IMG/VR virus record: IMGVR_UViG_3300016665_000824
Location: 64,001-128,000 of that record
Length of the DNA: 64,000 bases
Strand: one strand, 5' to 3'
From: a virus
Shown: in pieces, positions 4,954-44,668 of the stretch
Numbering within the stretch: the stretch's first letter is position 1
Layout of the letters: every line of letters begins with the position of its first letter
Notes under the pieces: generated by a model
What the model saw: the letters and a program-made list of their open reading frames with translations, nothing else
Databases searched by the model: none
What the model was told of the DNA's origin: nothing
Position numbers and translations under genes: made by a program

Positions 4954-5039
4954 GATTTAGATCTGAATACGTTGTCCGATAATAAGCGATCGCCAATTCA
5001 GCTTCATTTAAAATCTCCGAAGGCGCGATCGCTAAGATT

Positions 5040-13247: not shown

Positions 13248-13373
13248 AGAAATGCGTTATGGTTGTTATGCGATCGCCAAGTCTCAATTGGCAGGAAGAA
13301 TGTCACTGGCGACAAACATAAGGATACGCGGCGAGATACTGGCGATCATCTTAAAAGAAATCGTAAAAACCAC

Positions 13374-17471: not shown

Positions 17472-17595
17472 AATTTTCCTCTTGTTTTGCCACAAAATTA
17501 AAACATTTTTACGTTATATATGGTATCCTTATGAGGTGTCCATATATTGGATCAAATCCTAGTATAAGGATACACCAAAAAACGGAAAAACGAGT

Positions 17596-25102: not shown

Positions 25103-25466
25103 TTTTTAATCCGCAACGTAATTTTGTTGTGCTATTGTTGTAATCACCAAAGAAGCAAATGAGAGACCCACCTGCTAAAAATAAGCAAAAAATAAAAGAG
25201 CCAACCGCCAAGTCGCTCTTTCATTCTTTGAAAATGATTGTTTGTTTCACTTCAGTTTCGGTTGTTCCTTCCACCTCGTCGTTTACACGCCTTGGCTGTT
25301 TGTGTTCAACACGACACTAATTTCCTGAATACTCTAACACATGGCGATCGCTTTGTGAAGGGGAATTTACGGAATTGGTGAAAAAACTGGAAGACAAGTG
25401 GTTTCTTGGGAATCTCAAGAACGCTTTGGTTGTTTTTTACACTTTAGTTTCGTAGGAAATTTAGTT

Positions 25467-25997
25467 ATGCTCTCAAGCGAAGAATACATACGCGACAGAC
25501 AAGACTTCGGTTGCTGGGAAGCCCGTATATTTTACTCCCCAGAATTAGATGCCGTTGTTGCGGCAGGTTTTATGGATGGGTTGATCTTCAACAAGGAAGA
25601 ACTCTTCCAGCTAGGCTCATTACTCCTTGATGCCTCAATTAACGTTTCGGGTAAAGACATCTGCCACCTCAATAATCGGACATCGGCGAGAGGTCGTTCT
25701 GACAAGGATTTTTGGCTACAGCGCAAGAATAGATCTGGACTCGTGTATCTAATCAAGGCGATCGGGACTAACTACTACAAAATTGGTAGAACAAAAGATA
25801 TTGAGACTAGATTAGAGACCCTGCAAAAGTCATCTCCATTCGACCTCTCGCTGATTCTTGCCATAGAAACATCAGACTCTTTGGCTCTAGAGAGGTACTT
25901 CCACGATAAGTACAATGATTGTCGAGTTAGGGGTGAGTGGTTTGAGCTAGATGAGTATGCGATCGCTGAATTTATGAGCTACGAGGAGGTCGCGTGA
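25467..25997 (+). CDS. GIY-YIG / T5orf172-like nuclease domain protein
   Basis: GLVYLI...YYKIGRTKDIETRLETL pattern; start placed at internal ATG 25467. Confidence 0.45.
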   Translation: MLSSEEYIRDRQDFGCWEARIFYSPELDAVVAAGFMDGLIFNKEELFQLGSLLLDASINVSGKDICHLNNRTSARGRSDKDFWLQRKNRSGLVYLIKAIGTNYYKIGRTKDIETRLETLQKSSPFDLSLILAIETSDSLALERYFHDKYNDCRVRGEWFELDEYAIAEFMSYEEVA

Positions 25998-29957: not shown

Positions 29958-30016
29958 TTGACAGTATGCCTAGTAGTGTGTATGATGGTATTTAGTTTCA
30001 GGTAAAACAATATGAC
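29958..30016 (+). repeat. ~60-bp junction segment, copy B (upstream region of gene 30012)
   Basis: See copy A. Confidence 0.6.
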
Positions 30017-30530
30017 GAATAGCTTGGCTGTGACCTACCAATCGCTCCCACAGAAAGAACAGCTTGAGATACTAGCAGGAGTATCACACCTTATGATAAA
30101 GGTAATGGCAGGTAAAATCCCAACAACAGAAGAGATGGACTTGGCTTCAAAAGCCCAGACCCATCCAAGCCTATTTTTAAAATGCTTCTCTGCCGAACTT
30201 ATGGGAGAGGAGTGGAGACCAAAGCTATTGCCTCAAGGCGGAGAAGGGTATATTATTCGCTGGAAATCCGATGAATACGAAGAGGTAGAGACCGACTCCT
30301 ATCCCTTTAAAAAGAGGGTTTACAAAGAAGAGGGCAATGGACTTGAAATCCAAAGCTACGAGCAGGCGATCGCCAATTGTGAATTTCTAAATAAGCAATA
30401 CCCAGAGAGGACTTACTGGCACTTCTGGGTAAACCAAGACATCCTCAACAACGCAGAAAGCGAGGGTCTTCAACTCATAGACACTGTTGCTCAGCATCTC
30501 TTTGAGGCTCTATCACAGGCTCATGGTTAG
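30012..30530 (+). CDS. hypothetical protein
   Basis: 172 aa ORF. Confidence 0.45.
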   Translation: MTNSLAVTYQSLPQKEQLEILAGVSHLMIKVMAGKIPTTEEMDLASKAQTHPSLFLKCFSAELMGEEWRPKLLPQGGEGYIIRWKSDEYEEVETDSYPFKKRVYKEEGNGLEIQSYEQAIANCEFLNKQYPERTYWHFWVNQDILNNAESEGLQLIDTVAQHLFEALSQAHG

Positions 30531-30533
30531 TTT

Positions 30534-30824
30534 ATGACCCCAGAAACTAGAGCGCGATTCAAAGAATGGGCGATCGCCTACTGGAAGAAAAATCCAAAGT
30601 TACTGAAGCCACCCGATGACTTTCTCACGCAAGGACAGCAGTTGGCGATCGCTATCTACCATGCCATTCCCGCCGATGGGAAGTTTATTAAAGCTGATGC
30701 GATCGCTACTAAGCTCAAACGCAAAACCAGACAAATAGAAGAGATTCTGGGGCTAATCAAAGAGCCGTGGCATCTCAAGTCAAGTAAAAACAACAAGGAA
30801 GGAGGATATACGAGAAATGAGTGA
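30534..30824 (+). CDS. hypothetical protein
   Basis: 96 aa ORF. Confidence 0.4.
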   Translation: MTPETRARFKEWAIAYWKKNPKLLKPPDDFLTQGQQLAIAIYHAIPADGKFIKADAIATKLKRKTRQIEEILGLIKEPWHLKSSKNNKEGGYTRNE

Positions 30825-31089
30825 CACAGTTGGTTTGATTTTTGGTAAGGAAGATAGCAGGACAGAGCAGGAAATCTCTGAGCTTGCGGAGGTCGTAAAA
30901 GCGGCTGGAATTAAGAGAAACCCTGCCATGTTTGCAAGATTTATTTACACACTCGACAAGACAAAAACCTGTCACCCGTCGATTGACCGTGAAGCCTTTC
31001 TGCTAACACTTCAAGAAGTATGGGAAGAGAAGGGACTCCAAGGACTTTCTCTCGCTGAAGAAATATATCAAAGAGGTTTTACAAGATGA
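30817..31089 (+). CDS. hypothetical protein
   Basis: 90 aa ORF, overlapping starts/stops. Confidence 0.4.
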   Translation: MSDTVGLIFGKEDSRTEQEISELAEVVKAAGIKRNPAMFARFIYTLDKTKTCHPSIDREAFLLTLQEVWEEKGLQGLSLAEEIYQRGFTR

Positions 31090-31823
31090 TTGAAAGGCAA
31101 GTTAAACTGCTGGTTCTAGACAAAGACGGTACACTCGTTCGCCCCAAATCTGGCAATACCTTCGTCCAGCACCCCGAAGATCAGGAGCTAATCGAAGGAG
31201 TGGCTGAAGCTATTCAGAGGTATGTTGCTGATGGATGGCAGTTGGCGATCGCGTCAAATCAGGGTGGATGCGAAGTGCGATGGTGTCACCCCGCCGAATT
31301 ACCTGTAGGTAGTTACTGCAATGTAGATAACATTGCCATCAAGGTTGAATACCTTCAAGACACTGGTGAGTTTATACTCGTAAATGGGCATCACCCACTA
31401 CCAAAAACTAGGTTTGCGAAGTTCCAATACAAGACTCTCGGCATAGCGATCGCAGAGATGCAGTATGCGATGAAGCTGATCGGCATTCAGTATCATGGTC
31501 TATTCTGTCCAGACATGCAAGGGAATGAATGCTACATGACTTCGGACTTTGCTGCTCCGCCATTACACAAGGTTGATAGATACAAACACTTAATAGGCTC
31601 GTTCCGTAAGCCCAGTGGTGGAATGTTGCTAGCATTAAAGCAGCACTTTGAAACACATCTTGATGATGTTGATCGGCTGCTCATGATCGGCGATCGTCCC
31701 GAAGATTTGGGATCGGCTCAAGCCGCAGGATTCGATTTTGTGTGGGCAGAAGACTGGCGAAATAACGAACTAGACAAAGTTCTGCCCTACAGGAGCGAAG
31801 AATGGATCGCTCTGAACTCCTAA
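31086..31823 (+). CDS. HAD-superfamily phosphatase
   Basis: N-terminal VLDKDGTL (DxDGT motif I) and C-terminal MIGDRPEDLGSAQAAG (motif IV-like). Confidence 0.5.
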   Translation: MIERQVKLLVLDKDGTLVRPKSGNTFVQHPEDQELIEGVAEAIQRYVADGWQLAIASNQGGCEVRWCHPAELPVGSYCNVDNIAIKVEYLQDTGEFILVNGHHPLPKTRFAKFQYKTLGIAIAEMQYAMKLIGIQYHGLFCPDMQGNECYMTSDFAAPPLHKVDRYKHLIGSFRKPSGGMLLALKQHFETHLDDVDRLLMIGDRPEDLGSAQAAGFDFVWAEDWRNNELDKVLPYRSEEWIALNS

Positions 31824-32101
31824 CTCGCATCCAAGTCCAGCGAATGTGGCTAGAGGACATCCGTGGCAAGTCTCTAGCTCCTCAGTTGGAGATTTGGAAG
31901 AACAAATACCTTGCCGCAAATAATCTCACGCATCTGGATGCTCAGGGGCTGGAGCAACTGCTTAAGGCTCTTGAGTCTATGACTAAGGCTACGGTGAGTA
32001 ACGCCGAGGAATTGGATAGTCAGATGCGCGAGAGGATTAAGAGTGGCGACTACTCGATTCGATTTGTTGAAAAGATTGTTGAAGATGATGAATATTTTTA
32101 G
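31802..32101 (+). CDS. hypothetical protein
   Basis: 99 aa; 3-prime end encoded by junction repeat R1. Confidence 0.4.
   Translation: MDRSELLTRIQVQRMWLEDIRGKSLAPQLEIWKNKYLAANNLTHLDAQGLEQLLKALESMTKATVSNAEELDSQMRERIKSGDYSIRFVEKIVEDDEYF
32074..32100 (+). repeat. junction repeat R1 (GATTGTTGAAGATGATGAATATTTTTA), copy a
   Basis: Identical 27-mer at 32619-32645; both followed by a purine-rich RBS-like GGAGG/AGAGG. Confidence 0.75.
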
Positions 32102-32120
32102 GAGGAGGTAAACCCCAACC

Positions 32121-32336
32121 ATGCGAAACGCCTACTTAACACTTTTTGTGATCAACACCCGTTCAGGACTCGCAGTTAATTATTCAATCAATACCGCAGC
32201 CGACCAGAAGGAGGCTAGAGCCGATGCTCTACTACTCATCGATGAGAGATATCGAGGTCAAAATATTCAGGTTCTAGAAACATCTATTATTCCAAACGAA
32301 GTTATCGATCAGGTTTATGAGTCTCGACACGAGTAA
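32121..32336 (+). CDS. hypothetical small protein
   Basis: 71 aa; GGAGGAGG RBS upstream. Confidence 0.4.
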   Translation: MRNAYLTLFVINTRSGLAVNYSINTAADQKEARADALLLIDERYRGQNIQVLETSIIPNEVIDQVYESRHE

Positions 32337-32340
32337 ACTC

Positions 32341-32384
32341 GATCGCCACTTTTTCAGATCTGAATTACCACAAAAGCACAATGA
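32341..32384 (+). repeat. junction repeat R2 (...AGATCTGAATTACCACAAAAGCACAATGA), copy a
   Basis: 29-bp identical core at 32356-32384 and 33097-33125, flanked by near-identical GATCGNCNCTTTTT. Confidence 0.75.
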
Positions 32385-32614
32385 TTTTAGAGGCCTATTA
32401 TGAAACGTGGGTATCTCGCCCCATTCAAAAGAGAGCTAAAGGTCGAGCCACCTATAGTAAGCCGCAGTGGGAGCATACCTCAGACACAGAAGAAGAGGCG
32501 ATCGCTCACAACAAGATGCTTTCGGCTTACTACCCCGACTGGAAGATTGAAATCAGGGCTGTCGAACAAAAACGAGAATACTGGGATGTCAAGACTGCGG
32601 CAGTTCGAGATTAA
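32381..32614 (+). CDS. hypothetical small protein
   Basis: 77 aa; ATG supplied by junction repeat R2; alternative frame 32400..32627 also open. Confidence 0.35.
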   Translation: MILEAYYETWVSRPIQKRAKGRATYSKPQWEHTSDTEEEAIAHNKMLSAYYPDWKIEIRAVEQKREYWDVKTAAVRD

Positions 32615-32618
32615 AGAA

Positions 32619-32645
32619 GATTGTTGAAGATGATGAATATTTTTA
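32619..32645 (+). repeat. junction repeat R1, copy b
   Basis: See copy a. Confidence 0.75.
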
Positions 32646-32655
32646 AGAGGTTAAT

Positions 32656-33147
32656 ATGGCAAGTGTCAAGCATTATTTAAGTTGCCCAGCTAAGCCCTAC
32701 GAAGAAGGGATACCCTTATACTCCGATCGCCTGAGAGAATGGTTTCACGATATCGGTGATGTCTGGGAATACTACGAAGATCAGATCGGAGAAGATGAGG
32801 ATATTGATCTTGAATGGGCGGAAGCCAAGCAATCGCCTCAAGGTATTTGTGAAATGGCTCGTCTTTTCTTAGGTAGACCAGTTTATTTGCCGTGGGCTGA
32901 GATTCCTGAATTTGATCTACCTGATGGTGTTGACGATATCTCGGAAATACTGCCGCCAAGCCACGAGATCAACATAAAACTTGCCGAGTTAAACAAGCTT
33001 ATCGAAGAAACAAAGCTGGTTGTTTGCTACGAGGAGTCTAGCTACCGCCCAGATCCAGAAACCTTGGACTTTAAGTGCGCGATCGTCGCTTTTTTTAGAT
33101 CTGAATTACCACAAAAGCACAATGAAAGCTCGACAGTTCGAGATTAA
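32656..33147 (+). CDS. hypothetical acidic protein
   Basis: 163 aa; C-terminal codons lie in second copy of repeat R2. Confidence 0.4.
   Translation: MASVKHYLSCPAKPYEEGIPLYSDRLREWFHDIGDVWEYYEDQIGEDEDIDLEWAEAKQSPQGICEMARLFLGRPVYLPWAEIPEFDLPDGVDDISEILPPSHEINIKLAELNKLIEETKLVVCYEESSYRPDPETLDFKCAIVAFFRSELPQKHNESSTVRD
33081..33125 (+). repeat. junction repeat R2, copy b
   Basis: See copy a; supplies C-terminal codons of gene 32656..33147 and the ATG of gene 33122..33376. Confidence 0.75.
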
Positions 33148-33376
33148 ATTTAGAAACCATCCAGAGTGCGATCGCCTAGTCGAAGCCACCAGTCATGCCA
33201 AAGCCAAGATGAAGCTCGCCTACGAGTTGGTTGAGGCGGGAGTATTTAATACTTTTGGAGAGGCTTTACTGGCGATCGCCACCTGCCGAGTCTTACAGCC
33301 AATGAAGCGAGGGAAACCCGAAGGGTGGTATCGGGTGAACCCTAAACGAAAAACAACAAGGAACAAAAAGCAGTGA
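33122..33376 (+). CDS. hypothetical small basic protein
   Basis: Internal ATG at 33122 (supplied by R2 copy) inside track ORF 33020..33376. Confidence 0.35.
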   Translation: MKARQFEIKFRNHPECDRLVEATSHAKAKMKLAYELVEAGVFNTFGEALLAIATCRVLQPMKRGKPEGWYRVNPKRKTTRNKKQ

Positions 33377-33939
33377 TTGACAAAACAAGATTAGAAATAG
33401 CGAACAAGGTCTTAGCAGTACTCAGTGAGTCTTATCGTAAGACTGAGTTTGTAGTTAGCGATCGCAACCGACTTTACCTGAACTGGTTCGATTATTACGG
33501 CAAGGCATATAGTCGTCCTTGGGCAACAAGATGTGGCTCGGCGTATCCAAGCTGGAGCGACAAACTGTCTTGCGGCGGCACGATGATGACGGCGATCGCG
33601 CAGTTGGCTTTATGGGTTCGCGGATTGCCTTGCTACCCCATTCAGACTTGGGAGTATTGGTGCGGAGAGACGGTTGGAATGAGAGGTGGGGAGAAAATTC
33701 TTCCACTCTTAAGGGACAGTGGCTGTTATCCCGATGGACTTAGTTGTGCTTTTTGTGGGGCTAGGGATGTCGAGAGGGATTGGTATTGGTTCTCGCCTCA
33801 CCCTAAGCACTCTGGGTTTGGATGCCAGCGCCCAGAATGCCAGCCAATTATAGATCTTAGGAATAGTTTGGACGTAAAACAACAAAATCGCGTCAAAAGA
33901 ATTTTATCCTCGCAACGTATCCCTGCTTCCGTAAAATAG
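33373..33939 (+). CDS. Cys/Trp-rich hypothetical protein (possible metal-binding)
   Basis: 188 aa with 12 Cys and many Trp/Tyr. Confidence 0.4.
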   Translation: MIDKTRLEIANKVLAVLSESYRKTEFVVSDRNRLYLNWFDYYGKAYSRPWATRCGSAYPSWSDKLSCGGTMMTAIAQLALWVRGLPCYPIQTWEYWCGETVGMRGGEKILPLLRDSGCYPDGLSCAFCGARDVERDWYWFSPHPKHSGFGCQRPECQPIIDLRNSLDVKQQNRVKRILSSQRIPASVK

Positions 33940-34086
33940 TTTGATCGGTAACGTAAATTTGTGGCAATATTAACAGAAGCGTTTCAAGAACAATGAACAA
34001 ACTAATTGCCTATCTGGTAAACAAAATCGAATCTGCTTACCACACTGCAAGATTCCTGCTATCTATACTTAAATTGGAGTTTCCCC

Positions 34087-34401
34087 ATGCTAGACCCCAT
34101 AGAGCTACAGGTCAGTATTTTCGAGATGGAGTTCACGCAGGCGATCGCGCACCAATCCCTCCCAGAAGCAAGAAAGGCAGTAGCCGATTATTTGCAGCTA
34201 CTGGAGCACAAGAAGGACTCGACAATCAGGCTGAGACCCCAAGTGACATCCTTGGTTTCTGGGCTGGAGACCCTCTCGATAGATTTACTAATTCAATCAA
34301 CCGAAAGTCGGGAGGAACTCAAGGCGATCGCGGTAAGGATTTGCAGGATGTTGCTGAAACTAAACACGCTGCTCAAGGAAGCGGTGAGCGGGATCTGCTA
34401 A
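34087..34401 (+). CDS. hypothetical protein
   Basis: 104 aa ORF with protein-like composition; overlapping track ORF 33993..34631 looks out-of-frame in its middle. Confidence 0.3.
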   Translation: MLDPIELQVSIFEMEFTQAIAHQSLPEARKAVADYLQLLEHKKDSTIRLRPQVTSLVSGLETLSIDLLIQSTESREELKAIAVRICRMLLKLNTLLKEAVSGIC

Positions 34402-34627
34402 CCCAGCAGGACATTATCCTAGACAAGATGCGTCGGAAGCAATCGGAATTTGAAGACTACTACGTTTTTAGCACTCACGACATAGTGACCCTATGTGAGG
34501 ACAGTCATCTGGACTGGGACTTGGCTTTTGACCAGCTAATAGCTTTAAACAAGAGGAATCTAGTTGCTATAAATCCGACATATTGCGATCGCACAGGCAA
34601 ATTTATCGGATTGTTGTGGGGTTTAAA

Positions 34628-35572
34628 ATGAGTAAAACCGTAGCCACGATGTATTCTGGCTTTGGCGGAGTTGATCAGGGTTTCGTTTTGGCAGGGTATA
34701 CGCCAGTCTTTGCGATCGATAACAATCCTGATGCAGTAGCGGTTTATATCGAGAATTTTGGCAACCACTGTCTAGAGAAGGACGTTTGTGAGTTTGATTA
34801 TTCAAGAGTTAAAGCAGATCACCTCCATGCTTCTCCAAGCTGCAAAGAGTTTAGTAGCGCCAATCACCGTAGTAGCGAAACCGATCTCGATATTCGATGC
34901 GCCCAAGCTACGGTTAAGGCGATCGCACAGATAAACCCTCAAACATTTTCCCTCGAAAATGTAAAGCAGTACGCTAAGTCTAAGTCTTTTGATTTGATTA
35001 GGCGATCGCTACGAGAAATGGGCTACGCCTGCAACGTAACCGTAGTCAACGCGAAGGATTTCGGTGTATCCCAATCACGAGAAAGGCTAATTCTTCGAGC
35101 ATGGGTTAAATCCCGCAAACGCCCTAGACCTTTGGCGTTGTACAAACAGTGTTTAACAATGGGGTGGCATGACGCGATCGCCGATTTAATCCCCACTCTC
35201 AAACCACAACCATTGAATAATTGGCAGCTAGCCTCTCTTGAGGAGCAGGGTATAGACCCCACCAACCTAACTGCACTGGTTAGCAAAGATGGGTCTCGCA
35301 AGAAAAAAGGCTTTAAAAATACTTTTGCCTTGGTAATCCCCTCGTCCAAGCCTTGCCCAACCCTCAAGGCAATGGGGCATAATCAGCACTGTCAGCAGTA
35401 TTCGATTGTGGTTAACGGTGTTGGTTATCGGATTTCTACCGAGGCGATCGCGAGACTAATGAGCTTTCCCGACTCATTCAAATTCTCAGGAGTGAATTAT
35501 AAAGACTGTATGGGTTTAGGTAATGCAGTACCGCCATTATTGGTAAGAGCGATCGCGGAAAGTTTTGCTTAA
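34628..35572 (+). CDS. DNA (cytosine-5)-methyltransferase
   Basis: Motif I-like MYSGFGG, catalytic PSCKEFSSAN (Pro-Cys), ENV motif; start at internal ATG 34628. Confidence 0.65.
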   Translation: MSKTVATMYSGFGGVDQGFVLAGYTPVFAIDNNPDAVAVYIENFGNHCLEKDVCEFDYSRVKADHLHASPSCKEFSSANHRSSETDLDIRCAQATVKAIAQINPQTFSLENVKQYAKSKSFDLIRRSLREMGYACNVTVVNAKDFGVSQSRERLILRAWVKSRKRPRPLALYKQCLTMGWHDAIADLIPTLKPQPLNNWQLASLEEQGIDPTNLTALVSKDGSRKKKGFKNTFALVIPSSKPCPTLKAMGHNQHCQQYSIVVNGVGYRISTEAIARLMSFPDSFKFSGVNYKDCMGLGNAVPPLLVRAIAESFA

Positions 35573-35605
35573 AAATCCATAAAACTACCACAAAATCGAG
35601 TTATC

Positions 35606-35875
35606 ATGAAGGAATCTGATTTAGACAATGCGATCACGCAGGCAGAACAGTTTTTAATTCTCGCAAAAGAGCTAAAAGCTGGCTTTCAAGCTCAGAAGAA
35701 GGTGATCGCCGAGGCAGAAGCCGAGGTGATTCGCGAAAATCTATCTGAGACATACGCGGAAAATAAAATCTTTTTCGCCCGTTACAACAACAAGATGGAG
35801 GGAACGAGACTAATGGGTGCAGTAAAGCATTCCTGTGTTACCCTCTCCCTCTTTTTAGCAAAGCTGAGGAAATAA
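35606..35875 (+). CDS. hypothetical protein
   Basis: 89 aa ORF. Confidence 0.4.
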   Translation: MKESDLDNAITQAEQFLILAKELKAGFQAQKKVIAEAEAEVIRENLSETYAENKIFFARYNNKMEGTRLMGAVKHSCVTLSLFLAKLRK

Positions 35876-36117
35876 TGACCCAGTATATACAGACCGAATT
35901 CTGCCTTGATTTAAGGCAAGGTGATACCGAATCACTGCCTACATGGATGAAAAGCGTAGGCGATCGCCCACCGATTCTCCCTTTAAAACCACTCTCAATT
36001 CAATTGCCACTATTCGATACAACACCCTATGCCTCAACCCAAGCTCCTGCTAAAACCAAAACCGCCAGAGGCGATCGCTATAAGCAAGTTGCTATTTCGA
36101 CCCCGCAACACCTCTAG
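35875..36117 (+). CDS. hypothetical protein
   Basis: 80 aa ORF. Confidence 0.3.
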   Translation: MTQYIQTEFCLDLRQGDTESLPTWMKSVGDRPPILPLKPLSIQLPLFDTTPYASTQAPAKTKTARGDRYKQVAISTPQHL

Positions 36118-36475
36118 CCCCAACCAGTCCCGCAGATTGATGTCTGATGGTCTGGTTGCTCACTATCCCGTACACGCCGAAGCAAGCTTGGTAATTACTG
36201 AATATACCTCCGAGATACTTCAGGAGCACCAGTCTTGCTTGGGTAAGGGTATTGATCACTTCGCGATCGCTATCTACTGGGGTAACAAAATCCGTATTGA
36301 GGCTAAACCCCTTGAGTGATTGCGCTGGCTACAGGATTCTAATTGGCGTACTGCTTTTTGGAAAGAGTTAGGCGATCGGGCGGAGAGCTATAACCCCACC
36401 ACCCATCTCAATATCGGGTACATCTCTGGAGATGGGTTGGGATGCACAAAATTACAGGCGATTTTGGAGGTGTGA

Positions 36476-36982
36476 TTGATACTTGTAGACAGGCAAATAA
36501 GAAGGTTGTGCGAACAAGGAATGGTAACACCTTTCGACCCATCCCTTCTCAACTCTCACTCTATCGATGTCCGAATAGGCGATCGCGCCAAGATTGAAGA
36601 CGGAGAAGATCTTAAGGATATTCACTTGGATTGGTACGACAAGGAGAACCCCTACAAGGTTAGACCCAACCAGTTCTTCCTATCCTGTACCCTAGAACTT
36701 GTTGACATCCCCCCTAATATCGCGGCAGAGTTTCGACTCAAATCTACCAGAGCGAGAGAAGGTTGGGTTCATGCTCTGGCGGTATGGATAGATGGTGGGT
36801 TTAACGGCTCTATTACTCTTGAGTTGGGCAATGCTCGTCAACACAAAAGCCTACCCATATACACGGGTATGAAAATTGGTCAGTTGATATTTCACGAAAC
36901 TGAGACCCCTGACGTTAGCTACGCAGAAGTCGGGAGGTATAACGGCTATACCACGGTGCAGGAGGCTAAGCCAGATGCCTAG
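36476..36982 (+). CDS. dcd: dCTP deaminase (dUTPase-fold)
   Basis: N-terminal ILVDRQIRRL...SIDVRIGD resembles Dcd N-terminus; GGAGG 5 nt upstream of TTG start. Confidence 0.6.
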   Translation: MILVDRQIRRLCEQGMVTPFDPSLLNSHSIDVRIGDRAKIEDGEDLKDIHLDWYDKENPYKVRPNQFFLSCTLELVDIPPNIAAEFRLKSTRAREGWVHALAVWIDGGFNGSITLELGNARQHKSLPIYTGMKIGQLIFHETETPDVSYAEVGRYNGYTTVQEAKPDA

Positions 36983-37367
36983 ACGTAAAAACTACTCTGT
37001 TCCAGAACCACCACCGATCGCAACCGATGAACCCGCAATCATCGACCTAGCAATCGAGGATATTGAAACCTATGGTGGTGAATTTAAGATACTTATTCCC
37101 CACCTGCGCGATCGCCTAGCTATGGGCATAGCTAAACATGGTACTCCCCTCCAGAAATCCAACGGGCGAAACCATAGGGTCGATGGATTTCAAGAGCTTG
37201 AAGACTTTATTGCTTACATGAAGCAAGGTCTTGAGCGAGGGGATGAGGAGATGAGGTGGTTTTATTATCAAGGGCTTATCCTTGCCACCGATTTCGCCAA
37301 GCTCCTAGAGGGCAAGCAATTTAACTACAACGTCAAGAAGAAAACCGTACTAAGACCAAACGAATAG
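36975..37367 (+). CDS. hypothetical protein
   Basis: 130 aa ORF, 8-nt overlap with dcd. Confidence 0.4.
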   Translation: MPRRKNYSVPEPPPIATDEPAIIDLAIEDIETYGGEFKILIPHLRDRLAMGIAKHGTPLQKSNGRNHRVDGFQELEDFIAYMKQGLERGDEEMRWFYYQGLILATDFAKLLEGKQFNYNVKKKTVLRPNE

Positions 37368-37373
37368 GAGCCA

Positions 37374-37706
37374 GTGATGACCACAAAGAAGACAATCCCG
37401 CAAGAGCCAAAGATTGATTTTGCCTTAATTGCAGAGGCGATCGCCTTTAAAACCCACGATGCTATACGAAGCGCCTTGAGATCTACCGATTCTCTATATG
37501 TGGAGAAGGCTTCCGAGGTAGCGATCGGGGACTTGGTGGCAAATATTTCCGATCTAACCGTGGGTGCTAGCTGTCTAGATAGCGTCGGCACGGTACTGGA
37601 GATTCGGGATGGCGAAATCGAAGTTCGCCGCATAGATGGAGTTACTTGGTGTGTGCTCCCTGCGATCGGTACTTATGTTGCGGCAAAAGGGGTTAGTAAT
37701 GGTTGA
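37374..37706 (+). CDS. hypothetical protein
   Basis: 110 aa ORF. Confidence 0.4.
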   Translation: MMTTKKTIPQEPKIDFALIAEAIAFKTHDAIRSALRSTDSLYVEKASEVAIGDLVANISDLTVGASCLDSVGTVLEIRDGEIEVRRIDGVTWCVLPAIGTYVAAKGVSNG

Positions 37707-37911
37707 TTTTTTTGGCGTAGCGATCGGTAAATACTATCGCAATATTAAAACTGGAGACATATACCAAGTAGTTCTTCTTTCATTTTCATCTGAGTTGGGT
37801 ACGGAACTTCTAGTTAGCTATAAGAAACAAGGAGACGCGCTTCCTTGGACTCGTCCCTTAGCTCTTTTTATTATTAAATTTGAGGAGGTCGGAAGTAATG
37901 TTCCAGCCTAA
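37699..37911 (+). CDS. hypothetical small protein (start at internal ATG 37699)
   Basis: ATG overlaps upstream stop. Confidence 0.3.
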   Translation: MVDFFGVAIGKYYRNIKTGDIYQVVLLSFSSELGTELLVSYKKQGDALPWTRPLALFIIKFEEVGSNVPA

Positions 37912-38752
37912 AGTAACGATTATTGCCGACAGCGTAAATCCGTGGGGGACGAGGCTGACCTCCTTTGCTCTTACCTATCCACGGTTTATACATGCAGAAA
38001 TGTTGCGGCACAGAGTCTTTTCTCGCTGTGTATCAAGTTCACGGGCTATTCCGATCGCCAAGATGATCAAAGCTGTCGAAGAAGCCGATCTGTATCCAGT
38101 CTTTTGGGGTGCAGCGCAAAAAGGCATGGCGGCTGACCACGAAATTAAAGAGGAAGATAAATGGTACGCGATCGCTATATGGGACGAACACAGAAAAGCG
38201 ACCATAGAAGCGGTCAAAAAGCTCTCCGACTTGGAACTGCACAAGCAAATTCCGAATAGACTGCTAGAACCATTTGCGCCAGTAACCGAACTGGTCACGG
38301 CAACTGAATATCAAAATTTCTTTGAGCTGCGAGATCACCCTGCGGCTCAGCCAGAAATTCAGGCGATCGCCAAGCTAATGCGTAAAGCATATACGGAAGG
38401 CAAACCCAAAGAGTGCGAGCTAGGTCAATGGCACATCCCGTTCATAGACCCAGAGAAAGACAAGGATTTAGATCCTGAAATTGTACTTAAGGTTGCGGTC
38501 GGTCGGTGCGCCAGAGTGAGCTATCTAACTCATGACGGCATTCGAGATCCACAGGAGGATGTCAGATTGTGCGATCGCCTATGGAATAGCAAGCCAAAGC
38601 ACCTGTCTCCGTTTGAACACGTAGCAAGGGTCGCTCCTTGGAAAACCAAGAACGATAACTTTGATGAATGGGCTAGCCTACGCCATGAGCTAAAGGTTGG
38701 CGCATTAATTTATGAGAATGGAAAAATCAAGGAGGGTCGTCGTGCTAAATAA
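37880..38752 (+). CDS. thyX: flavin-dependent thymidylate synthase ThyX
   Basis: ThyX signature RHRxxxxxxxSxR present as EMLRHRVFSRCVSSSRAIP. Confidence 0.75.
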   Translation: MRRSEVMFQPKVTIIADSVNPWGTRLTSFALTYPRFIHAEMLRHRVFSRCVSSSRAIPIAKMIKAVEEADLYPVFWGAAQKGMAADHEIKEEDKWYAIAIWDEHRKATIEAVKKLSDLELHKQIPNRLLEPFAPVTELVTATEYQNFFELRDHPAAQPEIQAIAKLMRKAYTEGKPKECELGQWHIPFIDPEKDKDLDPEIVLKVAVGRCARVSYLTHDGIRDPQEDVRLCDRLWNSKPKHLSPFEHVARVAPWKTKNDNFDEWASLRHELKVGALIYENGKIKEGRRAK

Positions 38753-39191
38753 CGAACAGATTGAAGCGATCGCCGAATCTCTTTATTGTAAAACCAGTGA
38801 CGGTTTTTGGGAAGACTCACCTCCCGAAAAGAAACAATCAGTCAAGGAGGGAATAGCTTTTATCGCAAACAGAGCGATCGCTATCCAATCAGAGCAAGAC
38901 CGCCGCAGCTTCATCGCCGTCGGGAAGTATATCGGCGTTACATTCACCTCTGAGACCGACGTGGTTTCCGCAGTCTACGACAAGCTCGACGAAATCATGA
39001 CGGTGTTTAGAGAGCATAGTCAAGAGATTGCGATCGCGCAGCAAATTAAAACCTTGAACAATCTACTGGAGAAATATGTCAAGCAACAGGAAGCCTCGCC
39101 TATTTGTACAGGGGCAGTGGGTGAAGAAACGGGAAGATCCTTTTGTGCTGGAGAAGAGTGCGTCGGAGGCTCTGAGGATTCAAACCTCTAG
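38712..39191 (+). CDS. hypothetical protein (boundaries uncertain; overlaps thyX end and next ORF)
   Basis: 159 aa ORF. Confidence 0.35.
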   Translation: MRMEKSRRVVVLNNEQIEAIAESLYCKTSDGFWEDSPPEKKQSVKEGIAFIANRAIAIQSEQDRRSFIAVGKYIGVTFTSETDVVSAVYDKLDEIMTVFREHSQEIAIAQQIKTLNNLLEKYVKQQEASPICTGAVGEETGRSFCAGEECVGGSEDSNL

Positions 39192-39373
39192 GAGAGGTGA
39201 ATCCAACTACGGCGTTGTTATTTCGTCAACAGAAAACAACAAAATTAACACAAAACTACGGATTTTATTTTACCCTCAAGGTAAGATAGAGGAGGTTGCA
39301 AAGAGTCGGCTAGACTTTGCGATCGCCCCTACTGATATCAATAGCGCTAGCCATAAATTTTTGGATACTTACA

Positions 39374-39811
39374 ATGAACGAATTAGAACTGCTTAACCAA
39401 AAGGTCGCAGAAAAAGCTGGCTGGATTGACATTCACGAATGGAGTCCTAACCCTAAATACCCGCGTCCGCGAAAATCTTACAAAGGAACAAACCCTGCCC
39501 ATCCTGAACTAGGGGCTTTTATCCCAAACTATGTCGAGGACTTGACCGCGATCGCAAAGGTATTCACCTCCCTAGGTATTGAATGGACTCTCTCCAGCAT
39601 TGGACACGCAAACACCGTAGACCCAGAAGAGATAATAACTTCTGGACTGTGTGACAGTCCCGCGATCGCACTTTGCCAACTCCTAATAAACATTGATCCC
39701 GAACCGATAAAACCCAAAGTCGAATGCGAAAAGTGTAAGACTGCTCCTAGAGACTTTCAGGCAGAAGCAGCGAAAAACAATTCTGGAGTTATCGAGGTGA
39801 GTTTTGGATGA
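39374..39811 (+). CDS. hypothetical protein (start at internal ATG 39374)
   Basis: Track ORF 39317..39811; internal Met MNELELL. Confidence 0.4.
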   Translation: MNELELLNQKVAEKAGWIDIHEWSPNPKYPRPRKSYKGTNPAHPELGAFIPNYVEDLTAIAKVFTSLGIEWTLSSIGHANTVDPEEIITSGLCDSPAIALCQLLINIDPEPIKPKVECEKCKTAPRDFQAEAAKNNSGVIEVSFG

Positions 39812-40065
39812 TGACTGTCGAGTATTCCATGCCCTGTCCACATTGCGGCGAACCTGCAACCCATAAGATTGGATTCACAAAGAAGACTGGTTATCGAAGA
39901 TTCAGGTGTCCTACATGTGGCAAAAACTTTAGTAACTCTCCCCATCCCAAGGGTAGCCGCCCTCACGGAGAGGAGCCTAAGCCTAAGTCTGTAATTGCAA
40001 TGCGATCGCGTCAAAAGAAAAAACAAGAAGCTCTGCTCGCAAAAGAAAATCATGAAATTAGCTAG
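39808..40065 (+). CDS. zinc-ribbon protein
   Basis: CPHCG...CPTCG pair of CxxC motifs; basic C-terminus. Confidence 0.45.
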   Translation: MMTVEYSMPCPHCGEPATHKIGFTKKTGYRRFRCPTCGKNFSNSPHPKGSRPHGEEPKPKSVIAMRSRQKKKQEALLAKENHEIS

Positions 40066-40339
40066 ACTACAAAAAATATTCGAGGAATTACAGACGGCTC
40101 AAAAGGAGGAGTGCGGGTTTGGGGATACCACTCCTTACTCACTCCTGATTGAGCGGATGCTTCAAGACGAAGATTCTGATTTCTGCCTAATGATTGTCGA
40201 GAGAGCGATCAACATCGGAAGAAAGAAAGAAGGGATCTTTGATCGCCAAAACCCTGAACCTGTTGTGCCAGTGATTGCTCCTGTTAAGAGAGGGCGGAAG
40301 CCCAAGGCTCAAGCAATATATGGAGCGACGGATGGCTAA
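40052..40339 (+). CDS. hypothetical protein (start at internal ATG 40052)
   Basis: Overlaps upstream stop by 14 nt. Confidence 0.35.
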   Translation: MKLARLQKIFEELQTAQKEECGFGDTTPYSLLIERMLQDEDSDFCLMIVERAINIGRKKEGIFDRQNPEPVVPVIAPVKRGRKPKAQAIYGATDG

Positions 40340-40799
40340 GCGATCGCAACCTCAACCACTTCTATCCGACGAAGAATTAAGGGACTATGCGATCGCCAAG
40401 TATATCGGGAACTTGCTTAAAGCGGAGAACGAGTCAATTGTTTTTCGCTTGCAAGGCTCGGTAGTACCCAAAGCACGACCAAGAGTGACTAAAACTGGTC
40501 AGGCATATATACCCCCGAACTATCGAGCATGGAAAGAAGAGGCGATCGCGTGTTTGAGAGGGATTAAGTTTCTCTACCCGCAGCACACTTTCCCGCTCGA
40601 ACAAGCTAACGCCATGTTCACCCTTGACGGCAAGCATAGCCGAGGCAGTGACGGAGACAATATTTCTGGGGCATTAAATGATGCTCTAGTACAGGCAGGG
40701 ATAATGAAGGAAGACAATCTACTCCATATTCCTGAGCAGGCGGTTATTTTGAATTATGACAAGACGCGATCGCCATCCACATTAATTGTTTTGTACTAG
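40332..40799 (+). CDS. rusA: Holliday-junction resolvase RusA-like
   Basis: VVPKARPRVTKTGQAYIPPNYRAWKEEA matches RusA core; start at internal ATG 40332. Confidence 0.6.
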   Translation: MAKRSQPQPLLSDEELRDYAIAKYIGNLLKAENESIVFRLQGSVVPKARPRVTKTGQAYIPPNYRAWKEEAIACLRGIKFLYPQHTFPLEQANAMFTLDGKHSRGSDGDNISGALNDALVQAGIMKEDNLLHIPEQAVILNYDKTRSPSTLIVLY

Positions 40800-40803
40800 A
40801 ACT

Positions 40804-41160
40804 ATGTCTATAAAAGTAAAAATCCTCCCAAAAGATGTTCTATGGCCACCCGAATTAGAGGGCTATGGTTTTGATGTTACTTCTGCCGACGTAGGTATCT
40901 GTGGAAAGAATGCCTATTGCCGTCTTCGGCGCTCTAAAATGAAGGCTGTTGAAGCGCTGTTTAGGGCGATCAAAGGCCAACAGAATTGTTCCGCGATATC
41001 AAGCGTGAATTTTGGCAGCTACTTTAGCGCTTCCTATAACGCGGACGGATCTATAACCTCAAGACCAAGAACAATGATGATCGATGGTGAGGAATACCTT
41101 GAATCATACATAGAAATCAATTACAGCTATCCGATCGCGATCATTGATCCCGTCGATTAA
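40804..41160 (+). CDS. hypothetical protein
   Basis: ATG at 40804 inside track ORF 40786..41160. Confidence 0.4.
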   Translation: MSIKVKILPKDVLWPPELEGYGFDVTSADVGICGKNAYCRLRRSKMKAVEALFRAIKGQQNCSAISSVNFGSYFSASYNADGSITSRPRTMMIDGEEYLESYIEINYSYPIAIIDPVD

Positions 41161-41240
41161 CTGACGTATATTTGTGGTAGTATTATTTTATTAGGCGATC
41201 GCCACAAGAATCGCATTAAACTTTTATCAGGTGAATAAAT

Positions 41241-41597
41241 ATGAGTTATCCCCAAGACAGGGAGACTGCTAATGACTATCAAGAGTATGTCGTGAAGTAT
41301 TCTAAGGGTTATGCTATCTATGGAACCGCAAATGCGTTGCCAGTCTATTCGCTCGGACTTGCTGGAGAAACTGGAGAAGTCTCAGAACTGTTGAAGCGGC
41401 ATTTTAGAGGTGACGATGTTAGCCCTGAAGCCTTTAAGGAAAAACTAACGCTCGAACTGGGTGATGTAATTGCCTATGCAGCGCTAATTGCCCATTCTTT
41501 TGATATCCGCTTGGATGACGTGCTTCAGGCTAATCTGCACAAGGCGGCTAAACGAAACGCCGCAAATACTCAACTAGGATCGGGAAGCGATCGCTAA
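41241..41597 (+). CDS. mazG: MazG-like nucleoside triphosphate pyrophosphohydrolase
   Basis: GLAGETGEVSELLKRHFRGDD and LELGDVIAYAALIA resemble the MazG EExxE/D motifs. Confidence 0.55.
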   Translation: MSYPQDRETANDYQEYVVKYSKGYAIYGTANALPVYSLGLAGETGEVSELLKRHFRGDDVSPEAFKEKLTLELGDVIAYAALIAHSFDIRLDDVLQANLHKAAKRNAANTQLGSGSDR

Positions 41598-41599
41598 CT

Positions 41600-41953
41600 A
41601 TGGCTACACAACTAGTCCACTATGAATATCTCTGTCACGGTAAGGCGTGGAAGATGCTCGCAGTAATTGGTGAACAGTTACTAAGCTACGATCAGCTATC
41701 AAGAAAGTACTTGGAGTTTGAGGGCGATTTCACTGGCGTTGTTACTACACCTGAAAAATGGGATATAGACACAACCTTGGAGGAGTTCACAAGGGCTGGA
41801 GCTATTTGTCAACGAAACACATTACTTGGAGTCAAATATTCACTCCCTCCTGAAGTCCTCGCCCTGAGCACTGACCCTCATTCTTACGAAGCTTGGGCGA
41901 CCGTATTTAGCCGAGCCTCCTTTGACGACTGGAAGACGTTACCCAAAAACTAA
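41600..41953 (+). CDS. hypothetical protein
   Basis: 117 aa ORF. Confidence 0.4.
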   Translation: MATQLVHYEYLCHGKAWKMLAVIGEQLLSYDQLSRKYLEFEGDFTGVVTTPEKWDIDTTLEEFTRAGAICQRNTLLGVKYSLPPEVLALSTDPHSYEAWATVFSRASFDDWKTLPKN

Positions 41954-41959
41954 CTAACT

Positions 41960-42415
41960 ATGAACAAACTTATATTGTCGCCCCTGACGCTGTTGGAGGG
42001 GAGAGCATCTAACACTAAAGACTCTACCCGATTTGATGGCGTGGGGTCATTCCATGAAGCCTATGGCGATCGCGCAGTTCGCCAGATTCACATCCTTGCA
42101 TTTGGCAAGACGGCTGAGCGATTGAAGGATATCGTGATCGGTAGCAAGCTGGAAACCTCTGGTGAATACCGTAGCGAGACAAGAGATCTTGGTAATGGCA
42201 GAAAAGAATATCTGAATATATTCTTGATCAACAAAATCACTAGGGTTGGCAAACCATCTGAGGTTAGCGAAGCCATTGAAGTCGAACAAGAGGCGATCGC
42301 GCCAGTAGTTGAGGCTAAGAAAGTGGCGCAGAAGACAAAGGTTGCTCCTGTTTATACACCACCCGCAGTAACAGACAGTACTGCCGACATAGATCTAGGG
42401 GACATCCCCTTTTAA
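41960..42415 (+). CDS. hypothetical protein
   Basis: 151 aa ORF immediately upstream of ssb. Confidence 0.4.
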   Translation: MNKLILSPLTLLEGRASNTKDSTRFDGVGSFHEAYGDRAVRQIHILAFGKTAERLKDIVIGSKLETSGEYRSETRDLGNGRKEYLNIFLINKITRVGKPSEVSEAIEVEQEAIAPVVEAKKVAQKTKVAPVYTPPAVTDSTADIDLGDIPF

Positions 42416-42429
42416 TTCAGGAGAATATA

Positions 42430-42792
42430 ATGATAAACGAAGCTATTTTTGTTGGCAGAGTAGGCAGAAATCCCGATATCAAATATTTTGAATCGGGCAA
42501 GTGTAACGCGACGTTATCGATCGCTGTTAATCGTAAAGGCAAAGACCTCCCTCCCGACTGGGTGAACCTTGTTGCATGGGAGAAGACCGCCGAAGTCTTT
42601 GCTCAGTACGTTCGTAAGGGCGACCTTATCGAGGTTGAAGCTAATCTAAAATTTGAGACATGGGAAGATCGCCAGACAGGGGAGCCTAGATCTAAAGCCG
42701 TGTTCCAAGTCGAGAGGTTAGGCTTGCTAGGTAAATCAAGAGGCAGTAGCCAGAATGATGCCGACTACGGAGACTATGACGACGACTTCTAG
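42430..42792 (+). CDS. ssb: single-stranded DNA-binding protein
   Basis: OB-fold-like N-terminus (FVGRVGRNPDIKYFESGK), acidic C-terminal tail ending DYDDDF. Confidence 0.7.
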   Translation: MINEAIFVGRVGRNPDIKYFESGKCNATLSIAVNRKGKDLPPDWVNLVAWEKTAEVFAQYVRKGDLIEVEANLKFETWEDRQTGEPRSKAVFQVERLGLLGKSRGSSQNDADYGDYDDDF

Positions 42793-43256: not shown

Positions 43257-43479
43257 AAAGTCTGTCTACTGGCTAGATGAAGAATACTATCTTTATGAAC
43301 TGGAGGAGTGTGACTCTGACGAATATTTCGCCACTCTAGAAATAGACGAAGACTTTCTTCAAAAGTATCGTGACATCAAAAAGGAGTGTCTTGAGATGCA
43401 AAACCAAATTTCAAGAATGATCTGCAAGCAACATCCGCAGGAATGCCCTATCGTGAATTACAAGCCCGAAGATGAATAA
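43249..43479 (+). CDS. hypothetical small acidic protein
   Basis: 76 aa ORF, overlaps neighbours. Confidence 0.35.
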   Translation: MSKKSVYWLDEEYYLYELEECDSDEYFATLEIDEDFLQKYRDIKKECLEMQNQISRMICKQHPQECPIVNYKPEDE

Positions 43480-44668
43480 AATTATTTGGAAAGGCGATCG
43501 CTTTGAATGCAGTAGCCCCGAACTAGAAGGCGCAAAATGGCAAGTCCTAGCTTCTAACCATTTAAAGCTAAGGGATTTCATGGTTTGCTACGATTTGCGT
43601 CTCGACGAGTTTATATGCCACGCTGATCGCAGTATCACAATTCTTAAACTCAAGGAGGATCTGTCTTTTGCGGAGTTTCCGATCGCCGATGAAGGCGCAG
43701 GTTTTAATATTTGCTTTCACTTGGGAGCTTATGCGATCGCGTCAATGAATCTCGGTCAAAAGCTTGAGATCTGCGCGTACTCATTTAAGCCCTTACTGCA
43801 TCCAGTACTGTTTCAAGGTTTGGGTAAATGGTTTCGCGATCGCAGATCTTCTACTATTGATAGGAAATGTCCTTATTTTAGTGGCAGTTACGAGCTTAAG
43901 TGCGCGGTCAATCCTTCGTTGCCTTGTAATGAATGTGCCGAGGCTTCTGCAAGCTTCAGAGAGAATCTATTCGTATGGACTGCCGCCGATTTAGGCGATC
44001 GCATCCCTAGTGGCTTTGATTGGTTTAAAGCCATTGAGGATACCGTTAATCAAGGTCGAGGTTTCGACGAGATGAGACAAGCTTTTTGGGCAGCACAAGA
44101 ATCAATGCGATCGCAGATGGTAGAGATTCCTCGTATGGTCATAGGCGTAGATGAGGGTTCTGGGCAGGATACTACTGCGATCGCAATGGGACTCACTACT
44201 GAAGATGGAACTATTCTTACTGACGGTCTTGAGATCCGAGCAAATATTTCCGAGGCTGAGGCAAAAATAGAGGTAGCGATTACCAAACTTCAAGTCGCGG
44301 CTCATAAACTTCTCGATCAAAGATTGTTGGATGTATGTCAGCACGGACTAAGCGATCACATTACACCTCTACCGCCCAGACTTGAGGAGGAACGTCAACG
44401 GTATACGGAGGAGAGGAAACGGGCGAGGATCTGGTCTCACTTTGAAGGAGTAGTGGTATATCCTCAGCCCCACAGAATGCCAACGCCTCAAGAACTTTAT
44501 GGCTTGTCAACGAATACCGAGGAAGACCTCTCTAGTCGGCTAGGACTATCCCCAGAAGAGATGGCGGAGCATAAGGCTAACGGGACATTGTTTGCTGAAT
44601 TGCATAGGCGATGGCTACTAAAAAGAAACAATAGGCTTGATATTCACGATGAAAATATTCAAGGATAA
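43472..44668 (+). CDS. hypothetical protein (398 aa)
   Basis: Long ORF, Cys-rich N-terminal half; no recognisable motif. Confidence 0.5.
   Translation: MNKIIWKGDRFECSSPELEGAKWQVLASNHLKLRDFMVCYDLRLDEFICHADRSITILKLKEDLSFAEFPIADEGAGFNICFHLGAYAIASMNLGQKLEICAYSFKPLLHPVLFQGLGKWFRDRRSSTIDRKCPYFSGSYELKCAVNPSLPCNECAEASASFRENLFVWTAADLGDRIPSGFDWFKAIEDTVNQGRGFDEMRQAFWAAQESMRSQMVEIPRMVIGVDEGSGQDTTAIAMGLTTEDGTILTDGLEIRANISEAEAKIEVAITKLQVAAHKLLDQRLLDVCQHGLSDHITPLPPRLEEERQRYTEERKRARIWSHFEGVVVYPQPHRMPTPQELYGLSTNTEEDLSSRLGLSPEEMAEHKANGTLFAELHRRWLLKRNNRLDIHDENIQG

Follow-up and report, generated by a model that had tools for sequence, protein, structure and literature searches.

In cyanobacterial hosts two orphan methylases, DmtA (M.Ssp6803III, GATC) and DmtC (M.Ssp6803I, m5C in CGATCG), jointly target the palindrome HIP1 (GCGATCGC), within which GATC and CGATCG sites are nested (PMC4390886; bioRxiv 2026.06.24.733823). 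Orphan anti-restriction methylases of the Dam and Dcm families, lacking a cognate nuclease, are likewise found in phages (Dam of T4 and P1, ORF010R of the Planktothrix phage PaV-LD and gp003 of the Aphanizomenon phage CL131). In the N4-like phage G7C a dCTP deaminase gene (gp26) is followed by a gene for the flavin-dependent thymidylate synthase ThyX (gp30). These systems were compared with a locus that carries two DNA methylases, a dCTP deaminase and ThyX in a 64,000-nucleotide stretch of viral DNA (positions 64,001 to 128,000 of IMG/VR record IMGVR_UViG_3300016665_000824; hereafter the window), which is part of a 134,398-bp (about 134 kb) metagenome phage contig (ENA assembly ERZ27292652, k141_20893).

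Phage genes were found in the window (portal, Mu-F-like and tail proteins), with the major capsid gene just beyond it, and DnaB, DnaG, SSB, RusA, a beta clamp and an M23/SLT lysin are also encoded. The closest portal proteins, 28–31% identical, are those of the cyanophages S-CBS4, CL131 and PaV-LD, and the relationship to these cyanosiphoviruses is distant. A megablast search with 12.5 kb against 50,697 phage records gave no nucleotide-level relative, and no tRNA gene was found that could serve as a clue to the host, for which a Pseudanabaena-like cyanobacterium is at best a weak guess. Three related contigs, L003 (a 141-kb relative), L004 and L005, and two more distant ones, L006 and L007, were used for comparison. 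Taken as a whole, the probable reading is that the element is an uncultured, cyanosiphovirus-like tailed phage of about 134 kb from a HIP1-rich freshwater cyanobacterium, and that the locus is an early replication and nucleotide module accompanied by two orphan methylases, in DNA made of canonical bases. The principal features are as follows (window coordinates; aa, amino acids; AF2, AlphaFold2).

Positions 17897–18814, plus strand: orphan Dam-family N6-adenine methyltransferase, 305 aa, with GATC as the likely target (TIGR00571, PF02086)
Positions 31086–31823, plus strand: HAD-IIIA phosphatase, 245 aa, accessory (TIGR01662, PNK3P)
Positions 34628–35572, plus strand: orphan C5-cytosine DNA methyltransferase, 314 aa (PF00145, TIGR00675, motifs)
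Positions 36476–36982, plus strand: dCTP deaminase (DCD), 168 aa, TTG start, probably bifunctional (TIGR02274, PF22769)
Positions 36975–37367, plus strand: conserved helical 130-aa protein between DCD and ThyX (family conservation, AF2 model)
Positions 37898–38752, plus strand: ThyX, a flavin-dependent thymidylate synthase of 284 aa in which the 'ARVSY...SPFEH' segment is relocated (PF02511, phrog_85, motifs, AF2 model)
Positions 41241–41597, plus strand: MazG-type NTP pyrophosphohydrolase, 118 aa (PF03819, phrog_229)
Positions 1–64000, no strand: HIP1 sites throughout the window (counts), 43 of them within 30000–42500, for example at 30366, 34919, 35549, 36263 and 38168

The C5 methylase, DCD and ThyX genes lie within 4.1 kb. 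An earlier reading of the same DNA, made from its letters alone (the sequence-only reading), had described six modification and nucleotide-pool genes as clustered; this holds for these three, whereas MazG lies 2.5 kb beyond them, HAD 2.8 kb upstream and the Dam gene 16 kb away. The gene order is shared with L003, L004 and L005, running from DnaB through an open reading frame (ORF) of about 220 aa that directly precedes the C5 methylase to DCD, an ORF of 130 or 148 aa, ThyX, RusA and SSB. ThyX of L003 is 81% identical to that of the window, and those of L004 and L005 are 67% identical. L006 and L007 retain the series DCD, small ORF and ThyX. The gp26–gp30 module of N4 and G7C resembles the window in both enzyme families, in their order and in the presence of small ORFs between them, and its ThyX belongs to the same clade (42–43% identical). 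In contrast to N4 and G7C, the window module stands in a cyanosiphovirus-like block together with a C5 methylase, RusA, MazG and SSB, and a different protein, of 130 aa, separates the two enzymes. The region is a conserved early replication and nucleotide-metabolism module and not a dedicated modification cluster.

With DCD and then ThyX, the module provides the standard dCTP→dUMP→dTMP supply route. An action on the pyrimidine pool, as the sequence-only reading had proposed, is borne out by DCD and ThyX, with MazG as a possible contributor; HAD is not among the conserved genes of the module, and assigning it to the deoxynucleoside triphosphate (dNTP) pool is a guess. The word 'rewiring' used for this action went too far, since the same textbook route occurs in the same order in N4-like phages. 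The further suggestion of DNA modification beyond simple methylation found no counterpart: the Pfam calls of the window and of some 10 kb flanking it at either end included no ThyA-type hydroxymethylase, nucleotide or hmU kinase, glycosyl- or aminoacyltransferase, PurZ, DpdA/Que or Mom-like gene. A 398-aa ORF (43472–44668) considered as PurZ or another Z-genome gene gave only a weak match to DUF6464. All six enzymes scored above family cut-offs (TIGR or Pfam), with ThyX falling below TIGR02170 and HAD below the specific equivalog models. The gene cluster itself is routine, consisting of orphan methylases and a dCTP→dTMP route as in many phages.

DCD scored 102.1 against the equivalog model TIGR02274 (cut-off 92.8) and 94 bits against PF22769. 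The best solved relatives were the Mycobacterium tuberculosis structures 2qxx and 2qlp (64 bits), followed by the Methanocaldococcus jannaschii enzyme (46.6 bits) and Escherichia coli Dcd (35.5 bits). The protein aligns with 2qxx from residue 1, and the catalytic Ser/Arg/Glu region is kept ('KSTRAREG' and 'ITLELGN'). The M. tuberculosis enzyme is bifunctional, and the window DCD is probably bifunctional and dUMP-forming as well. It would convert dCTP directly to dUMP if it acts like these closest solved relatives and would otherwise yield dUTP; no separate dUTPase was found among the Pfam calls in the window. An N-terminal truncation or in-frame stop was considered and rejected, relatives such as that of L004 sharing the TTG start and differing only in the C-terminal tail.

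The ThyX ORF opens at 37880 and the gene probably starts at 37898. PF02511 was matched at 49.4 bits (cut-off 24.8), over profile positions 60–187 of 191 only, and phrog_85 at 210 bits; the score against the equivalog model TIGR02170 was 48.4, below the cut-off of 87.9. The characteristic motifs were located as RHR(x7)S at residues 37–47 (R37-H38-R39...S47), R49 and H235/S237-P238-F239-E240-H241, and all of these residues except R37 and H38 are among the invariant columns listed for 23 sequences. A phmmer search of the PDB with the native sequence gave no match at E ≤ 0.01. The profile built from the 23 sequences aligned with solved ThyX proteins in a non-collinear manner, query residues 22–170 corresponding to canonical residues 71–225 and query residues 200–249 (GRCARVSY…HLSPFEH) to canonical residues 26–71. 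When this block was moved in silico behind residue 17, 13 ThyX matches were obtained, with one alignment across the artificial junction.

An AF2 model of the protein (pLDDT 85, pTM 0.83) was submitted to Foldseek, which returned 144 matches at E ≤ 0.001; the 50 listed were all ThyX or PolB, with a probability of 1.00 and about 151 columns aligned. In this model the window protein has the ThyX fold. With canonical ThyX (Thermotoga maritima TM0449 and PBCV-1 A674R) and the (d)UMP methylase PolB it shares the fold and the RHR(x7)S, Arg and SPFEH motifs. In the canonical enzymes, however, the block at about residues 26–71 precedes the RHR motif, whereas in the window protein it lies near the C-terminus at about residues 200–249, leaving about 150 columns collinear. 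This relocation of an active-site segment explains why Pfam is matched only in part and why the NCBIfam score stays below threshold, and likewise why curated models under-score the clade. At least 7,881 homologues were detected, including proteins of N4-like phages and of Pseudanabaena chromosomes, and the rearrangement is presumably common to the whole clade. The Pseudanabaena chromosomal members are named FAD-dependent thymidylate synthase in their source records, and because the clade includes them, a thymidylate synthase function is a reasonable inference for the window protein. ThyX would methylate dUMP to dTMP and boost the dTTP supply for replication of a genome with 46% G+C. No solved structure of the rearranged clade was detected, and a literature search for permuted ThyX returned nothing relevant.

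The protein between DCD and ThyX is 60–100% identical in 20 family members, and 5,089 remote representatives were retrieved by a profile search, some of them fused to larger proteins. Its AF2 model consists of four helices (pLDDT 74). Searches against the PDB gave no profile match and no significant fold match, and the sole match in BFVD was an uncharacterized phage protein. Identification as a MazG-like or NMAD-type enzyme was rejected, as there was no Pfam match at E ≤ 10 in four orthologues and none in ten remote relatives. The 84-aa ORF between DCD and ThyX in L006 is not homologous to it.

MazG was recognized by PF03819 (31.7 bits, cut-off 22) and phrog_229 (65.7 bits) and contains the acidic motifs 'GETGEVSE' and 'LELGD'; NCBIfam gave no match. 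It would sanitize or trim the NTP pool. A MazG Pfam match is present in L003 and is missing from the precomputed Pfam lists of L004 and L005. HAD scored 55.6 against TIGR01662 (HAD-IIIA, cut-off 44.6) and 35.5 against PNK3P (cut-off 22), with the motifs DKDGT (residues 12–16), SNQ, RKP and GDR..D. Every specific equivalog model scored below its cut-off (GmhB, 62.6 versus 178; HisB-N, 27.2 versus 140; DNA 3'-phosphatase, 34.8 versus 107.65), which makes any role in the dNTP pool guesswork. No HAD Pfam match is present in the precomputed lists of L003, L004 and L005.

Both methylases named by the sequence-only reading were recovered at the same coordinates by profiles and motifs. The C5 enzyme scored 137.7 bits against PF00145 (cut-off 22) and 124.6 against TIGR00675 (cut-off 100.65). 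All of the motifs sought were found (I, SGFGG; IV, SPSCKEFS; VI, SLENV; VIII, QSRERL; X, GLGNAVPP), and the protein is collinear from end to end with M.HaeIII and M.HhaI. By these motifs and profiles it is catalytically complete. Its target-recognition domain spans about residues 160–265. Altered chemistry owing to the serine before the catalytic cysteine (SPSCK) was considered and rejected, SP[PVS]C being normal in the subfamily. Among the best 120 homologues, 14 were 67–100% identical and the next at most 48%, and none of the 120 came from an organism, cyanobacterial or other, named in the source. No match emerged when 185,579 species genomes were scanned with the single protein, and a profile scan gave cellular relatives of at most 39% identity in many phyla, with just four sporadic cyanobacterial matches. 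Because the scans yielded only distant and scattered cellular relatives, the enzyme does not appear, as far as these scans go, to be a close relative of host DmtC. The enzymes of PaV-LD and CL131 are only 26–35% identical to it. In PaV-LD the C5 methylase likewise follows DnaB and abuts an ORF of about 190 aa.

The Dam-family enzyme scored 188.8 against TIGR00571 (cut-off 114.85) and 147.6 bits against PF02086, and motifs X (KWVGRK), I (FVGTGS) and IV (DPPY) were identified. Its best match in the PDB was DpnM (132 bits), followed by several entries named 'DNA adenine methylase' (Dam of E. coli and T4); these solved relatives are GATC enzymes, and GATC is the likely target here. This site is not avoided (522 sites in the window, 1.9-fold over-represented). 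In the public metagenome gene call the protein is shortened to 234 aa, with loss of motifs X and I and hence of AdoMet binding motifs, and the 305-aa ORF is the credible version. A 151-aa ORF in another frame (17596–18051) overlaps the first approximately 155 nt of the Dam ORF; the public call resolves this overlap by trimming Dam.

HIP1 saturation and an extreme purging of palindromes, neither noted in the sequence-only reading, provide the context that makes both methylases interesting. The 64 kb contain 185 HIP1 sites, compared with 0.7 expected from the base composition (about 260-fold), corresponding to 2.9 per kb; five of the sites lie within the C5 methylase gene. CGATCG occurs 244 times, 16.8-fold above first-order Markov simulations. 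Other sites are nearly or wholly missing from the window (CCGG, 0; GGCC, 9; CCWGG, 4; GGWCC, 9; CYCGRG, 0), and 27 of the 64 possible palindromes of six bases do not occur. HIP1 density is 3.0–3.4 per kb in L003–L005, 1.2 in L006, 1.4 in CL131 and 0.54 in PaV-LD. For Synechococcus elongatus PCC 7942, a very HIP1-dense cyanobacterium, 7,402 copies are reported (PMC3025956), or about 2.7 per kb for the genome size of 2.7 Mb given there.

HIP1 sites of the window are conserved in 19 of 29 cases in L003, 36 of 49 in L004 and 33 of 41 in L005 (65–80%), compared with 13–16% for other 8-mers in the same alignments, GC-matched ones included. At conserved amino acids, codons with their third base in HIP1 are identical in 93–97% of cases and those elsewhere in 55–60% (Fisher p = 4e-9 to 2e-11). 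Variants differing from HIP1 by one base fall mostly at positions 1 and 8 (57), less often at positions 2 and 7 (14) and at most once at each of the core positions 3–6; in host genomes, too, variation has been described as concentrated at positions 1 and 8 (Elhai 2015, PMC4390886). Of the 14 variants at positions 2 and 7, ten are C→T or G→A, as expected from C→T decay at the first C of CGATCG. HIP1 is maintained in this phage lineage with a pattern of conservation and decay that matches that of cyanobacterial chromosomes, and the conservation tests do not separate selection from biased repair on a long-resident element. The main HIP1 papers, when searched for phages, contained no mention of them, and a literature search for HIP1 in phages gave nothing relevant. 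A 196-aa ORF (58896–59486, minus strand) has a weak DprA (DNA_processg_A) match; recent HIP1 work ties HIP1 to transformation and recombination.

The candidate target sites tolerated in the window are CGATCG, CGCG, GCNGC, AGCT, TCGA and GCGC. For the C5 enzyme CGATCG stands foremost among these, because it is uniquely retained and its first C shows a C→T bias; this tentative assignment falls a little short of being probable. The purged sites (CCGG, GGCC, CCWGG, GGWCC and others) are unlikely targets. PaV-LD and CL131 have many CCGG and CCWGG sites, both of which are purged here, and the protected site is therefore probably a different one. Under the preferred reading of a supply module with two orphan methylases, the Dam enzyme would methylate GATC and the C5 enzyme a short tolerated site, most probably the CGATCG core of HIP1 with the other tolerated sites as alternatives. 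Together they would give progeny DNA full methylation without host enzymes, and every other GC-rich palindrome would be evaded through its having been purged from the sequence.

The strongest alternative goes further and takes the two methylases as a self-contained copy of DmtA and DmtC (GATC and CGATCG), with HIP1 kept dense because methylated HIP1 is functional, in mismatch-repair strand marking, in recombination or in passing as self. HIP1 is jointly targeted by DmtA and DmtC in hosts, and the phage likewise has one enzyme per chemical class in a HIP1-saturated genome. The density in the window and its close relatives (2.9–3.4 per kb) exceeds the figure of about 2.7 obtained above for S. 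elongatus PCC 7942. The conservation of HIP1 over other 8-mers and at synonymous positions, a decay hierarchy GATC > CGATCG > HIP1 as in host genomes, and the status of CGATCG as the sole GC-rich palindrome left unpurged also favour it. The scans, however, did not detect a DmtC orthologue in the phage C5 enzyme, and the phage targets are candidates only; host replication and repair could maintain HIP1 passively in a phage-plasmid of long residence, as the ParA and ParB-like genes described below would allow; and the conservation tests accommodate biased repair as well as selection. We regard this alternative as possible rather than probable. Doubtful, but of wider consequence, is the more general proposal that the lineage keeps HIP1 at or above the density of the densest hosts under a DNA-level constraint, with its own Dam and C5 methylases for the nested sites, methylated HIP1 being a functional element copied by the virus. 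If this were true, methylated HIP1 would be a self mark or a repair, recombination or replication signal and not a mere by-product of host mutation bias, and its function would become testable in a small mobile genome. HIP1 has been without an explanation for about 30 years, and a lineage with 2.9–3.4 sites per kb, conservation of these sites at synonymous positions and methylases of both classes offers a compact system for testing whether methylated HIP1 is functional or a by-product of repair.

Several points weigh against the preferred reading. The scans gave no close relative of the DmtC type from cyanobacteria, and the window also tolerates several further sites containing C, so that the target of the C5 enzyme is only a candidate. 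Pseudanabaena PCC 7367 and S. elongatus are HIP1-rich cyanobacteria without a CGATCG methylase (Elhai 2015, PMC4390886), and with such a host it is not obvious what methylation of CGATCG would protect against. ThyX is rearranged and below the equivalog cut-off, its chemistry being read from conserved motifs, and the bifunctionality of DCD from a ranking of similarities. Inspection for modification genes covered 64 of the 134 kb plus about 10 kb per side, and many small ORFs of the window carry no annotation.

The C5 methylase is exchanged as a cassette between near-identical relatives. L004 and L005 have identical ThyX proteins and are 97–99% identical in the DNA around the locus, yet the methylase at the shared position is of 314 aa in L004 and 453 aa in L005, the two being mutually distant (85 and 26% identical, respectively, to the window enzyme). 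The replaced stretch is about 1.55 kb (L004 6003–7552 versus L005 5987–7561). On the left it starts precisely where a HIP1 site ends, and its right breakpoint lies 3–14 nt past another, a coincidence that is a single case and may be due to chance. The C-terminal third of the upstream ORF was replaced in L005 along with the methylase. The exchange fits an arms-race or anti-restriction use, and the proposal of the sequence-only reading that the methylases are orphans with such a role agrees with this swap and with the lack of a recognizable neighbouring restriction endonuclease. Cassette exchange at a fixed locus and genome-wide palindrome purging would then be two complementary anti-restriction strategies in one lineage. 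The genes adjoining the methylases that bear on this question are as follows.

Positions 18915–19418, plus strand: DUF4326 protein adjoining Dam, not a restriction enzyme (PF14216, 51.6 bits; no PADLOC match)
Positions 33993–34631, plus strand: 212-aa ORF whose stop overlaps the C5 methylase start, not a recognizable nuclease (no Pfam, PHROG or PADLOC match)

The four ORFs flanking both methylases and the ORF at 16593–17495 gave no match to PADLOC defence or restriction endonuclease models, and the methylase-flanking ORFs none to Pfam and PHROG nuclease models. For DUF4326 proteins a role in rhodanese-phosphatase-type processing of ADP-ribose(-phosphate), not that of a nuclease, has been proposed (PMC9503650). 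As far as profiles show, the absence of an adjacent restriction endonuclease noted in the sequence-only reading is upheld and both methylases are supported as orphans. Restriction enzymes frequently escape profiles.

That one or both methylases belong to a full restriction–modification or addiction module serving plasmid-like maintenance or superinfection exclusion, with an unrecognized neighbour such as the 212-aa ORF as the nuclease, is improbable. In its favour, the stop of this ORF overlaps the methylase start, the arrangement recurs in the relatives and in PaV-LD, the C-terminal third of the ORF was replaced together with the methylase cassette in L005, the element has partition genes, and restriction enzymes are often invisible to profiles. 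The positional counterparts of the ORF, however, are only 29–36% identical among relatives whose methylases are 73–85% identical; the middle third is of low complexity; and the alignment has only seven invariant columns, which form no nuclease-like motif; and there was no Pfam, PHROG or PADLOC match. Co-variation of the C-terminus with the type of methylase was considered and found to be inconsistent, since the window ORF has an L005-like tail but an L004-type methylase.

Weakest of all, and very improbable, is the production and installation of a non-canonical pyrimidine by DCD, the rearranged ThyX, MazG and HAD (the ThyX-like enzyme making a modified dUMP, MazG removing the canonical dNTP and HAD dephosphorylating the competing dNMP), for which the sub-threshold and topologically rearranged ThyX, the conserved 130-aa protein between DCD and ThyX and the use of MazG-family dCTPases and dUTPases by phages with modified bases could be cited, but against which stand the occurrence of the ThyX clade in Pseudanabaena chromosomes as named thymidylate synthase and in N4-like phages, the conserved RHR(x7)S, R49 and SPFEH catalytic elements, the lack of any transferase, kinase or hydroxymethylase gene in the Pfam calls inspected, the absence of a HAD Pfam match in any relative and of a MazG match in L004 and L005, and a wholesale avoidance of restriction sites that would be unnecessary if the bases were hypermodified.

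Genes for replication and partition were observed elsewhere in the element. The window encodes its own DNA polymerase III beta clamp (50300–51481, minus strand), a DnaG primase (20875–22632, minus strand) and a DnaB helicase (27213–28952, plus strand), and no DNA polymerase gene was seen within it. A weak ParB_N match was found at 49672–50331 (minus strand), and a ParA/CbiA-type ATPase with a ribbon–helix–helix (RHH) protein lies just past the window end (13046–13922 of the flanking stretch of the source contig). With these ParA/RHH and weak ParB_N genes and with DnaB, DnaG and the beta clamp, the element may perhaps be kept as a phage-plasmid.

Proteins with T5orf172/MUG113 and GIY-YIG-like domains are encoded on either side of the replication module (25398–25997 and 62823–63533, both plus strand) and are possibly homing-endonuclease-type or DNA-binding genes. 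A 447-aa P-loop/STAND-like ATPase (54315–55658, minus strand) gave a weak PADLOC match to mad8 of the methylation-associated defence system MADS. In L003 a TnpB/Cas12f-like (OrfB_IS605) gene (4284–5465) is inserted between DnaB and the methylase, and it is absent from the window. A few kb downstream of their DCD–ThyX pair, the more distant HIP1-bearing phages L006 (10093–12180) and L007 (7065–9152) carry Csf3, a PAPS-reductase-like gene and Csf1, which together resemble a type IV-B CRISPR set; a PAPS reductase gene is also present in PaV-LD.

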